64,000 nucleotides of DNA from assembly GCF_054482595.1 (NCBI RefSeq), contig NZ_CM137008.1; one strand, written 5' to 3'. Shown piece by piece: positions 43,628 to 49,448 of the stretch. Numbering within the stretch: position 1 is the first letter of the stretch; each line of letters opens with the position of its first letter. The position numbers and the translations under genes were made by a program. A model generated the notes under the pieces. It was not told where the DNA came from. It saw only the letters and a program-made list of their open reading frames with translations, and ran no database searches.

Positions 43628-45166
43628 TTATTGCAAATCCGCGTCTTCAAAGCTGAAGCCGGTGTCTGGCATGATCCAAAAACCGGTCAGGTTTTTACTG
43701 TGTGCCGACACCAGTTTTTCTACCACCAGCGGGATCCACGGCGACTCTTGCCAGATGATATCCTGCGCCGCCTTATACAAGCGGGTCTTTTCCGCCGGAT
43801 CATTAGTTTTCAGTGCCTGAGCCAGGAAGTCATCCACCTGTTTATTGCTGTAAAACGCGGTATTAAACAGCGTCGGTGGCCAGTTCTGCGAGGCAAACAG
43901 CGGCGATAGTGCCCAGTCCGCTTCGCCGGTTGAAGCCGACCAGCCAGTGTAGAACATCCGCACGCCGCTCTCTTTTTGCCCTTTACCTTCAACTTCTGCC
44001 GCCCGCTGTCCGGCATCCATCGCAGTCACCTGGGCTTTAATCCCGACCTGCGCTAACTGCTGCTGGGTAAATTGCAGCACTTTCTGCGCGGTGCTGTGGT
44101 TATGTGACGACCACAGCGTGGTATTGAAACCATTGGGATATCCCGCCTCTTTCAGTAATTCGCGCGCTTTCACTGGATCGTAAGGCCACGGTTTATAACT
44201 TTGCGCGTAGGCGATACTCGGCGGTACCACACCAGTAGCTGGCGTTGCATAGCCCGCGAAGGCCACTTTCACCAGCGCCGGACGGTTAATGGCGTAATTC
44301 AGCGCCTCACGGACCTTCGGGTTATCGAATGGCTTTTGCGTCACGTTCATACTGATATAACGCTGCATAATTGACGGACTGGCCATCAACTCGATATTTT
44401 TGTTTTTCTCCAGCAGTGCGGCCTGCTCGTAAGGAATGGGGAAAGCAAACTGCGCTTCACCGGTTTGCAGCATTGCCGCGCGGGTGTTGTTATCCGCCAC
44501 CGGACGCCAGGTTATGCTGTCCAGTTTGGGCAATCCTGGCTGCCAGTAACCCGCGAATTTTTTCACCTTCACAAAATCAGTCTGATTCCAGGTATCCAGT
44601 TCATACGGTCCGGTTCCCACCGGATGAAAACCAATCTCCTTGCCATATTTTTCCAGCGCTGCCGGTGAAATCATCGCGGTCGCCGGATGGGCAAGAATAT
44701 TAATAAACGCTGAGAACGGCTGTTTGAGGGTAATCTTTACCGTTGTCGGATCGATCGCTTCCGTTTTAGCAATATTCTTATACAGGTTATAGCGTTTAAG
44801 ATGATTTGCCGGATCGCTGGCCCGGTCCAGATTCGCTTTCACCGCTGCGGCGTTGAAATCGGTGCCATCCTGGAATTTAATGCCTTCCCGCAATTTCACG
44901 GTGTAAGTAATGCCGTCATCGGAAACGGTATAACTCTCCGCCAGCACGTTTTTCAGTTTCATCTCTTTATCCAGACCGAACAGCCCCTGGTAAAACGATT
45001 TCGCTACGGCCTGAGATAACGTGTCATTCGCGTCATACGGATCGAGCGTGGTGAAATTCGATCCTACCGCCACCACCACATCTTTGGCAGCGAATGCACA
45101 AGATGCCATCAACGCTGTCGCAATGCCCAGCGCCACTAACCCACTACGGTGTACAGCTCTTGCCAT
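43628..45166 (-). CDS. gsiB: Glutathione-binding periplasmic protein
   Basis: ORF 43628..45433; start at [26 protein letters not shown] signal peptide gives 512 aa. Confidence 0.9.
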
Positions 45167-45185
45167 TTTATTCTCCGCCTGAATG

Positions 45186-47057
45186 TTATCTACGCATGAA
45201 TGCGTATTCTGATTGTGGTTGTGCGACGTAATGCCCCGGCCCGACGCATTGCAACGAGACGGGTGCAACCTCTTCGCCACGCAGATGAATATTGCTGGGA
45301 AGATCGTCCGACAGCAGTACACGCTGCGGTCGTTGTCGGGACGGTTCAGCGACCGGAACTGCCGCCAGTAATTTACGCGTATAAGGATGCTGCGGGTTTT
45401 CGAAGACCGCGCGCCGTGGACCAATTTCAACAATTTGCCCGAGATACATCACCGCCACACGATGACTAATCCGCTCTACCACAGCCATATCGTGGGAGAT
45501 AAACAGATACGCAATGCCGAAATCACGCTGGAGATCGAGCAACAAGTTGATAATCTGCCCGCGAATAGAAACATCCAGCGCCGAAACGGCTTCGTCGGCA
45601 ATGATCACTTTTGGATTCAATGCCAACGCGCGAGCAATGCAGATGCGCTGGCGCTGACCGCCGGAAAACTCATGCGGGTAACGCCAGGCATGTTCAGGTA
45701 ACAGGCCCACGCGCTCCAGCAACCACGCAACGCGTGCAACCGCTTCTTTACCTGGCAATAAACCGTGTACACGCAACGGTTCGATAATCGAATCACCGAT
45801 GGTCTGACGTGGGTCCAGCGAAGCGTAAGGGTCCTGAAAAATAAACTGAATATCGCGGCGCAATACCTGAAGTTTGCCGGGTGACAAGGTATCGATTCGC
45901 TGACCGTTAAAGATAATTTCGCCGCCCTGCGATTCGACCAGGCGCAGCAACGCCCGCCCGGTAGTGGATTTACCGCTGCCAGACTCGCCCACCAGCGATA
46001 GCGTTTCGCCAGGCCAGAGATCAAAACTGACTTTCTCAACGGCATGCACTTCCCGCGTTACGCGATTCAACAAACCGCTGCGCAAAGGGAAACGGGTGAC
46101 CAGATTACGCACCCGTAAAACAGGTTCGCCATCCACCACCGTTTTCTGCTCGATGGGGGGTTCCTGTTTCGCTGGATGTTCAAGCGATATCAACGGGAAA
46201 CGTCGGGGATAATCTAACCCTTTCATCGCACCAAGTTGCGGAACAGCAGCTAACAGCGCACGGGTGTAAGGATGTTGCGGTGCATGAAAAATCTGTTCGA
46301 CGGTACCCGTTTCCACCGCCTCGCCCTGATACATCACCAGTACCCGATCGGCAATCTCTGCCACCACGCCCATATCGTGAGTGATAAAGATAACGCCCAT
46401 CGACATCTCTTTTTGCAATACTTTGATTAATTGCAGGATCTGCGCCTGAATAGTGACATCCAGCGCGGTGGTTGGCTCATCGGCAATCAGCACCGCCGGG
46501 CGGCATGACAGCGCCATCGCAATCATCACTCGCTGGCGCATCCCGCCAGAGAGTTGATGCGGATAACGTGAAAGAATGGTTTGTGCCTCCGGAATGCGTA
46601 CCTGATCCAGCATCCGCTTCGCCTCGACCATCGCTTCTTCACGACTGGCGTTTTGATGCAGACGAATTGATTCGGCAATCTGTTCACCCACAGTAAATAC
46701 CGGGTTCAGCGATGTCATCGGCTCCTGAAATATCATCGCCATATCCGCACCGCGCACATGACGCATTTGTGCAGCGCTCTGCTCGCTAAGTTCAATCACT
46801 TCACGACTGCGCCGCCGCAACAGCATTTTATCGCACTGTACTAAACCGCCCGCCTGTTCCAACAGACGCATCAATGCCAGCGCAGTCACTGACTTACCGG
46901 AGCCGGATTCGCCAACAATTGCCAGCGTCTCACCGCGTTGCAGGCTAAAAGAGAGATTGCGGACCGCAGCTATTTTCTGCTGGTCCTGCATAAAGGCAAT
47001 ATTAAGATTTTCAACCGCCAGCACATTACCGGCATCAAGTTCATCACTGTGTGGCAA
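45186..47057 (-). CDS. gsiA: Glutathione ABC transporter ATP-binding protein (two ABC domains)
   Basis: ORF 45186..47165; TTG start at 47057 gives 623 aa beginning (M)PHSDELDAG; two Walker A motifs GESGSGKS. Confidence 0.8.
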
Positions 47058-48009
47058 CGGCGTCCCCTTTTTCACGGTAGATACCGGTGGTTGGCGTATC
47101 GCCTGCGTAGCCCCAGGCGCGATACATTCCTTCGGTGTTAAACGGTAGCGCGACATTCCCTTCATGGTCGATAGCGATTAAGCCACCGCTACCGCCAAGC
47201 GCAGGGAGTTTTTCCATTACTACCCGCTCGCAGGCTTCCGCGAGACTTAATCCGCCGTAATCCATTAACGCGGCGATGTCATATGCCGCCAGCGCGCGGA
47301 TGAAGACTTCGCCCGTGCCGGTACAAGAAACCGCCACACTGGCGTTATTGGCGTAGCATCCGGCACCCACTAAGGGGCTATCGCCAACTCGTCCGGGTAA
47401 TTTATTGGTCATTCCGCCCGTGGACGTGGCTGCCGCCAGATTGCCGTCTAAATCCAACGCCACGGCCCCCACGGTGCCCATTTTCTGTTTTTCATCCAGT
47501 GGCGCACCGCTATGGTCGAGGACTGTTGCCCCTTCCTCGCGCGCTGCCATTAGTTGTTCATAACGCAAAGGCGTGGAGAAAATCTCCGGTGAGACGCGCT
47601 CCATGCCATGAGCAAACGCAAAATTTTCTGCCCCTTCGCCAATCATCATCACATGCGAGCTTTGCTCCATCACCAGCCGGGCGGCAAGAACCGGATTACG
47701 CAGATGACTAACGCCCGCCACCGCACCGGCTTTCAGGGTGTTACCATCCATCACACAGGCGTCCAGTTCATGCGTTTCATCACGCGTAAAGACGGCGCCA
47801 ATTCCGGCGTTAAACAGTGGACACTCTTCCAGCAGACGCACCGCTTCCGTCACCACATCCAGCGCACTTTCGCCCGCTTCCAGCATTTTCTGCCCGGTTT
47901 CAACAATGGCAGACAACGCCTCGATGTAGCGTAATTCCTGTTGCAGACTCATCTGCGCGCGGCTAATTGCACCTGCGCCACCATGAATTGCAATGACTGC
48001 TTTGCCCAT
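47044..48009 (-). CDS. iaaA: Isoaspartyl peptidase / L-asparaginase (Ntn hydrolase)
   Basis: 321-aa ORF starting [15 protein letters not shown]; 14-nt overlap with gsiA start. Confidence 0.9.
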
Positions 48010-48212
48010 AGTATTCGTCCATTAAGGGTGGCTCGCCACTTTTGCTATAAATATCAGAATTTTTATGAATTACTCATTCAATTTTTGAATATAGAAAGAT
48101 GGATATGGCATGTAAAGGCAGGACCCAGCGCTACGCCCGAGGTGGCATACAGTCTGTGGCGTTTTTCTGACATAATAGGCAAATTCGATTTTGCCTCCGC
48201 AGGAGTGTTTTC

Positions 48213-49448
48213 ATGGAATTTACCACCGGATTGATGTCGCTCGACACCGCGCTTAATGAGATGCTTTCTCGCGTCACCCCACTGACCGCCCAGGAAACGC
48301 TGCCACTGGTACAGTGTTTTGGTCGTATTCTGGCGAGCGATGTCGTTTCGCCGCTTGATGTTCCGGGGTTTGATAACTCCGCAATGGACGGCTACGCGGT
48401 GCGTTTAGCCGATATTGCCTCCGGGCAACCGCTGCCCGTTGCCGGTAAATCCTTTGCCGGTCAGCCGTACCATGGTGAATGGCCTGCGGGTACCTGCATT
48501 CGTATTATGACCGGTGCGCCGGTGCCGGAAGGCTGCGAAGCGGTGGTGATGCAGGAGCAGACTGAACAAACGGACAATGGCGTGCGTTTTACTGCTGAAG
48601 TGCGTAGCGGGCAAAATATTCGCCGTCGCGGTGAAGATATCTCTGCAGGTGCGGTTGTTTTCCCGGCGGGGACTCGCCTGACTACCGCAGAGCTGCCAGT
48701 AATTGCTTCACTGGGGATTGCCGAAGTTCCGGTGATTCGTAAAGTGCGAGTGGCGCTTTTTTCTACCGGTGATGAACTCCAGTTGCCCGGTCAGCCGCTG
48801 GGCGACGGCCAAATCTACGATACCAACCGTCTCGCCGTACACCTGATGTTAGAACAGTTGGGATGCGAGGTAATCAACTTAGGGATTATCCGCGACGATC
48901 CCCATGCCCTGCGCGCCGCATTTATTGAAGCCGACAGCCAGGCGGATGTGGTGATCAGTTCCGGCGGTGTTTCAGTGGGTGAAGCGGATTACACCAAAAC
49001 GATTCTTGAAGAGCTGGGGGAGATCGCCTTCTGGAAGCTGGCGATTAAACCAGGTAAACCGTTCGCGTTCGGTAAACTCAGCAATAGCTGGTTCTGCGGC
49101 CTGCCGGGCAACCCGGTTTCAGCGACGCTGACCTTCTATCAACTGGTACAGCCTTTGCTGGCAAAACTAAGCGGCAACACCGCCAGCGGCCTGCCCGCGC
49201 GCCAGCGCGTACGCACAGCGTCCCGCCTGAAAAAAACGCCAGGTCGCCTTGATTTCCAGCGCGGCGTGCTGCAACGCAACGCCGATGGCGAACTGGAAGT
49301 GACGACCACCGGACATCAGGGTTCACATATATTTAGCTCCTTTAGCCTCGGCAACTGCTTTATCGTACTGGAACGCGATCGCGGCAATGTGGAAGTGGGC
49401 GAATGGGTGGAAGTAGAACCGTTTAACGCGTTGTTCGGAGGCCTGTAA
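48213..49448 (+). CDS. moeA: Molybdopterin molybdenumtransferase
   Basis: 411-aa ORF; synteny with moeB. Confidence 0.9.

Follow-up and report, generated by a model that had tools for sequence, protein, structure and literature searches.

A TTG start of gsiA within the 3' end of iaaA and a 14-nt gene overlap that looks like a by-product of stop-codon loss

The window, a 64,000-nt stretch of contig NZ_CM137008.1 (assembly GCF_054482595.1), carries the genes iaaA and gsiA next to each other on the minus strand. The iaaA gene (47044..48009; b0828 in K-12) encodes an isoaspartyl peptidase/beta-aspartyl-peptidase of 321 aa plus stop, and its product matched the NCBIfam model NF007589 with 708 bits, positions 1-321 of the profile aligning to residues 1-321. 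The gsiA gene (45186..47057) encodes the ATP-binding subunit of a glutathione ABC transporter, with two ATPase domains. Directly downstream of gsiA lies the gsiB ORF. The gene order iaaA, gsiA, gsiB was the same in K-12 and in strain 88-3493, and is continued by gsiC and gsiD in K-12.

At the junction, the iaaA frame reads ...GAA AAA GGG GAC GCC GTT GCC ACA CAG TGA on the minus strand, the stop codon TGA being located at 47046..47044. The gsiA frame is shifted by one base and reads ...ccg TTG CCA CAC AGT GAT GAA CTT GAT..., with the TTG at 47055..47057. The two frames thus share 14 nt (47044..47057), beginning with the T of this TTG and ending with the final base of the iaaA stop codon. Six nucleotides separate the TTG from a Shine-Dalgarno (SD) sequence, AAGGGG (47064..47069), which also lies inside iaaA codons. 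An earlier note on this DNA had placed the gsiA start at TTG 47057, 14 nt within iaaA, and both the sequence and the open reading frames agree with this placement. The ORF starting at the TTG comprises 623 aa and its stop is at 45186, also as claimed.

The TTG is not the first possible start in its frame. The longest ORF starts at an ATG (47163..47165), has 659 aa, and shares 122 nt with iaaA; the earlier note had given this overlap as about 120 nt and had correctly counted 36 additional residues. Further in-frame candidates, which the earlier note did not list, are ATG 47156 (656-aa form), GTG 47075 (47073..47075; 629-aa form), and GTG 47024 (47022..47024; codon 12, 612-aa form). We calculated the duplex of the SD region of each candidate with the 3' end of the 16S rRNA (ACCUCCUUA). 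The TTG had the best value of the five candidates (-7.8 kcal/mol), which was reached by no more than 1.9% of all 6020 NTG triplets of the window. The duplexes of ATG 47165 and ATG 47156 had -1.5 and -4.8 kcal/mol, and those of GTG 47075 and GTG 47024 had -3.0 kcal/mol each. SD complementarity, a spacing within 5-9 nt, and a conserved position of the NTG codon, as expected for canonical SD-led initiation at a UUG, were all found for the TTG.

A start at ATG 47165 (or 47156) would result in a GsiA protein of 659 (or 656) aa, the first 36 residues of the longer form being read from an alternative frame of the iaaA 3' end. This start would use the longest ORF and an ATG codon, but both ATGs lack an SD, their duplexes being weak, and the length of the open frame does not speak for it. 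Upstream of the TTG, the gsiA frame is open for 45 codons, and other open stretches in the same frame of iaaA have 31-35 codons; the open frame is thus ordinary in length. The NCBIfam equivalog model for GsiA, NF007613, scored 1373.8 bits (cut-off 1077), and positions 1-623 of the profile aligned to residues 37-659 of the long ORF. The first position of the family model is therefore exactly the residue encoded by the TTG, and the 36-residue extension lies outside the profile, although this agreement is partly circular because sequences of the E. coli type were probably used to seed the model.

The start in the window corresponds to that of E. coli K-12. In MG1655 (NC_000913.3), iaaA is annotated at 866568..867533 and gsiA at 867520..869391 (b0829, NP_415350.2), which gives the identical TTG and the identical 14-nt overlap. 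Gene, start codon, overlap, and 623-aa product are all the same, and there is no substantive difference between the K-12 gene and the gene studied here. The NCBI annotation pipeline PGAP gives the same TTG in strain 88-3493, which was 100% identical over a 601-nt query (window positions 46800-47400), and also in the most divergent E. coli sampled (96.7% identity). A distance of -14 is likewise listed for iaaA/gsiA in the catalogue of E. coli gene pairs in the supplement of Huber et al. (2023). The junction was found in 5425 of 5426 complete E. coli genomes. Its single difference to K-12 is at 47062, upstream of the start, where the window has a G (GAC GCC, Ala316 of IaaA) and K-12 has an A (Thr316). 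Since an exact match to all 56 nt of the junction was present in only 64 of the 5426 genomes, O145 RM9872 among them, the window carries a minority allele.

Published data on initiating ribosomes are available for K-12. Nakahigashi et al. (2016; PMC4909307) used tetracycline-inhibited ribosome profiling (TetRP) to locate ribosomes at initiation. In row 8 of their Table S2, gsiA appears under its former name yliA and is given a new TTG start at -33 nt from the start annotated in 2006, and this new start does not differ from the re-annotation of 2014. The pre-2014 start corresponds to GTG 47024 in the window. The TTG had read depths of 46.3, 140.5, and 70.6 in the three samples, whereas the old start had 0, 0, and 3.0. 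The footprint of initiating ribosomes on the gsiA TTG is thus taken from the literature for K-12 rather than from the strain of the window, and with the annotated K-12 start it bears out the call of the earlier note. Two properties of the TetRP data affect how they can be read. The screen was confined to NTG codons within less than 60 nt on the upstream side of the start annotated in 2006, a range that includes GTG 47075 and leaves ATG 47165 and ATG 47156 outside. For starts located within an upstream gene, the authors caution that the signal may be confounded by the ribosomes of that gene (PMC4909307). A GsiA N-terminal peptide was found neither in the tables of the TetRP paper (PMC4909307) nor among the listed entries of the TRAINSPOTTER N-terminomics supplement; these entries include an N-terminal peptide of IaaA.

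We compared the region in a scan with one genome per species, which yielded 80 loci with a GsiA relative; the Salmonella locus was not among the 80. The loci were anchored on the conserved VENL strand. An iaaA homolog was located directly upstream of gsiA in about 65 of the 80 species sampled, Betaproteobacteria included. In about 25 species of Enterobacteriaceae, the codon homologous to the E. coli TTG was TTG, GTG, or ATG, and nearly all members of the family had a start codon at this position. It was TTG in Escherichia, Citrobacter, Superficieibacter, and Pseudocitrobacter, GTG in Enterobacter, Lelliottia, Phytobacter, Kosakonia, Siccibacter, and Pluralibacter gergoviae, and ATG in Leclercia, Pluralibacter sp. 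UBA7423, Cedecea, and others. An AGGAG-type SD preceded the homologous start by 4-9 nt, the relatives having AAGGAG at the site of AAGGGG in the window.

The same comparison bears on the upstream starts. In at least 15 species of Enterobacterales, the frame is closed by a stop no more than about 40 nt before the gsiA start, so that a longer form of GsiA is impossible there, and these species keep the homologous TTG, GTG, or ATG. Both ATGs are absent from E. albertii, and ATG 47156 is also missing in E. coli EC42405 and in one further locus (L004). Despite the position of ATG 47165 outside the range of the TetRP screen, we regard it as effectively excluded as the gsiA start, judging from the sequence comparison, and consider a GsiA of 659 or 656 aa to be improbable in the extreme. 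GTG 47075 was also rejected: it lacks an SD, E. albertii and L004 have GCG in its place, and it was not called by TetRP although it was within the range of the screen.

Initiation at GTG 47024 would turn the TTG region into an untranslated spacer. This codon was the annotated K-12 start in 2006, and the first beta-strand would still be encoded, but the TetRP reads were nearly all at the TTG and the SD duplex of the GTG is weak. Several relatives have GTA, GTT, or GTC, and no NTG codon, at this position. In addition, codons 2-8 (PHSDELD) are conserved as amino acids. Among 18 species, pairwise differences in these codons numbered 304, 177, and 614 at codon positions 1, 2, and 3, respectively, and there were no frame-breaking indels. 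This pattern indicates that the region is coding in the gsiA frame and argues against GTG 47024, which we consider very unlikely to be the start.

The 14 overlap bases and the codons just after them (TTGCCACACAGTGATGA) were invariant across Escherichia and Citrobacter (L004-L008). In genera without the overlap, third-position variation was seen at those codons (CCG, AGC, GAC). The invariance may reflect a constraint by dual coding or merely a short divergence.

The call of the TTG as the gsiA start is strongly supported by annotation, published profiling, conservation of start and SD, and the NCBIfam model. It is already known from the curated K-12 annotation and the published profiling, and its value here is small: as an annotation check, it indicates that the curated start is right and that a longest-ORF rule would add 36 spurious residues.

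Gene overlaps can arise when the upstream gene loses its stop codon and is extended at its 3' end. The comparison of the IaaA C-termini suggests that iaaA fits this general model. In most of about 60 species, IaaA ends in ...IYR or ...IYRE. In Escherichia (E. coli, E. albertii, and a third species) and in three Citrobacter species, it ends in ...IYREKGD(A/T/S)VATQ. In the window, the eight lineage-specific C-terminal codons (KGDAVATQ) occupy 47047..47070, and the first of them is AAA (47070..47068) where the relatives have the stop codon TAA. The aligned junctions read gaaTAAggag in the relatives (L010-L028) versus gaaAAAgggg or gaaAAAggag in Escherichia and Citrobacter (L004-L008). Accordingly, IaaA has 321 aa in the latter two genera versus 311-313 aa in the nearest relatives (312-313 aa when ending in ...IYRE). 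The IaaA protein of Salmonella presumably has 313 aa. In most Enterobacteriaceae, the iaaA TAA abuts the SD and gsiA starts 9-13 nt later.

Among the sampled genomes, the stop loss was restricted to Escherichia and Citrobacter. Since Superficieibacter and Pseudocitrobacter have the TTG without the overlap, the TTG start is older than the overlap. From these alignments, the 14-nt overlap looks like a derived state that originated from a lineage-specific loss of the iaaA stop codon, and it looks like a by-product of this loss rather than a conserved design. Compared to the general model, iaaA represents one specific and datable instance, in which a change of TAA to AAA would have added eight residues and carried the reading frame into the neighboring gene. 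The observation also has a small evolutionary value, in that one loss of a stop codon can account for the overlap and for the eight-residue tail of E. coli IaaA. Solved structures of IaaA exist, and in PDB entry 2zal the residues of chain B, the beta chain, are listed only up to 315. This would fit a disordered tail but is only a hint.

The distance between the iaaA stop and the gsiA start varied across genera, with values of -14, -8, -4, -1, and +9 to +19. Independent overlaps were observed at -1 (TGATG/TAATG; L011, L024-L026), at -4 (ATGA/GTGA; L021, L029, L030, L035), and at -8 (L065). Smaller extensions of IaaA occurred independently in Cedecea, Erwinia, Rahnella, and Pantoea. Spacers between the two genes are longer in Burkholderiales, where they mostly measure tens of nt and reach about 80 nt. 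The junction was repeatedly remodeled in Enterobacterales, yet it is still tight.

Annotation, profiling, and conservation show that initiation takes place at the UUG. From sequence and conservation, we propose that a 30S subunit would be set on UUG 47057..47055 by pairing of the SD AAGGGG with the 3' end of the 16S rRNA. UUG and SD are both located within the last eight iaaA codons, and ribosomes translating iaaA terminate at the UGA, which lies 11 nt beyond the first UUG base. The ancestral junction would have consisted of an iaaA end encoding IYR(E) followed by TAA, an AGGAG, and about 10 nt before the gsiA NTG. In the lineage of Escherichia and Citrobacter, TAA would then have changed to AAA, extending the iaaA frame across the SD and the gsiA start as far as the next stop and adding KGDAVATQ to IaaA. 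We judge that initiation of gsiA is mainly SD-directed. Ribosomes finishing iaaA probably add something, either because they keep the site unfolded or by occasional re-initiation. To the joint reading of a UUG start, a 30S subunit positioned by the SD, a derived overlap, and mainly SD-directed initiation we assign a probability of about 0.92.

The earlier note took the overlap as a sign of translational coupling between the peptidase and the transporter. Coupled gene pairs that have been described (Huber et al. 2019, 2023; PMC12548453) resemble iaaA/gsiA in being co-directional and in having the downstream start and its SD within the upstream gene. They differ in that the overlap of coupled pairs typically measures 4 or 1 nt (ATGA, TGATG) and their products are often subunits of one complex, whereas iaaA and gsiA overlap by 14 nt and no complex of their products is known; the pair is marked 'CMPLX not' in the supplement of Huber et al. 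(2023). According to the literature, including a review (PMC12548453), coupling is most efficient at distances of -4 to +3 and decreases faster with longer overlaps than with longer spacers. Huber et al. use a range of -8 to +6 for coupling. The distance of -14 lies outside both ranges. For phage genes, coupling was reported at overlaps of -38 and -50 nt. Coupling of iaaA and gsiA is therefore plausible, in that the geometry permits but does not favor it. A strong obligate coupling at -14 is not expected, and we put the chances that a substantial coupling would be present somewhat below even.

It is also conceivable, with odds that we put at even, that gsiA does start at the TTG but initiates independently of iaaA translation, the overlap being a neutral by-product of the stop loss without a regulatory role. 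The ancestral spacer of +9 to +13 nt with its own strong SD points in this direction, since Huber et al. deem this class of junctions likely to be independently initiated. The differing overlap lengths between genera, the faster loss of coupling efficiency with longer overlaps, and the mark 'CMPLX not' also argue for independence. On the other hand, the junction is tight throughout the Enterobacterales and overlaps have arisen several times independently, as selection for proximity would bring about as well. With a weak UUG and an SD weakened from AAGGAG to AAGGGG, gsiA could benefit from ribosomes arriving from iaaA, and in phage, coupling has been reported at even longer overlaps.

Independent initiation is also favored by the predicted RNA structure around the start, which is not significantly inhibitory. 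The minimum free energy at the gsiA start was -36.5 kcal/mol compared to -33.3 +/- 3.3 kcal/mol for shuffled sequences (z = -0.98), and the helix enclosing the start (CCGGUAUC/GAUGCCGG) was not conserved in Citrobacter. A coupling that acts by unfolding of RNA over the gsiA start was therefore rejected, as the fold is no more stable than those of shuffles and is not conserved.

The stop loss, which converted a spacer of +10 nt containing the SD into an overlap of -14, may have changed the degree to which GsiA synthesis depends on translation of IaaA, but we consider this rather unlikely. If it is true, the junctions at -1, -4, -8, and -14 form a natural series for the dependence of coupling on spacing within one orthologous gene pair. 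If the genes are coupled, synthesis of an isoaspartyl peptidase, which reportedly also acts on glutathione-derived peptides, would be linked to synthesis of the ATPase of a glutathione importer.

Other modes of joint or separate expression were considered. A scan of 46700..48300 on both strands for promoter consensus sequences resulted in one site, versus 1.5 expected in shuffled sequences. This promoter-like site (TTTACA, 17 nt, TATATT; 48088..48116, minus strand) lies upstream of iaaA, and it provides weak evidence consistent with co-transcription of iaaA and gsiA. An internal gsiA promoter inside iaaA was rejected, again on weak evidence, as no consensus match for it was present in 46700..48300. 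The same scan found three terminator-like sites versus 1.8 expected by chance, two weak ones being located inside iaaA. A programmed frameshift at GAAAAAGGGG leading to an IaaA-GsiA fusion was rejected as well: no canonical slippery heptamer was found in the iaaA frame, and the alternative open frame is of ordinary length.

In the neighborhood of the two genes, gsiB is another case in which the longest ORF is an overcall. This ORF (43628..45433, minus strand) has 601 aa and starts at an upstream TTG overlapping gsiA. The annotated GsiB protein has 512 aa (MARAVHRSG...); as in K-12, its start would lie at 45166, with a distance of 19 nt to the stop of gsiA. On the other side, moeA (48213..49448, plus strand) points away from iaaA. 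The K-12 annotation gives moeA and moeB a 1-nt overlap, which is a tight junction of the classic kind.
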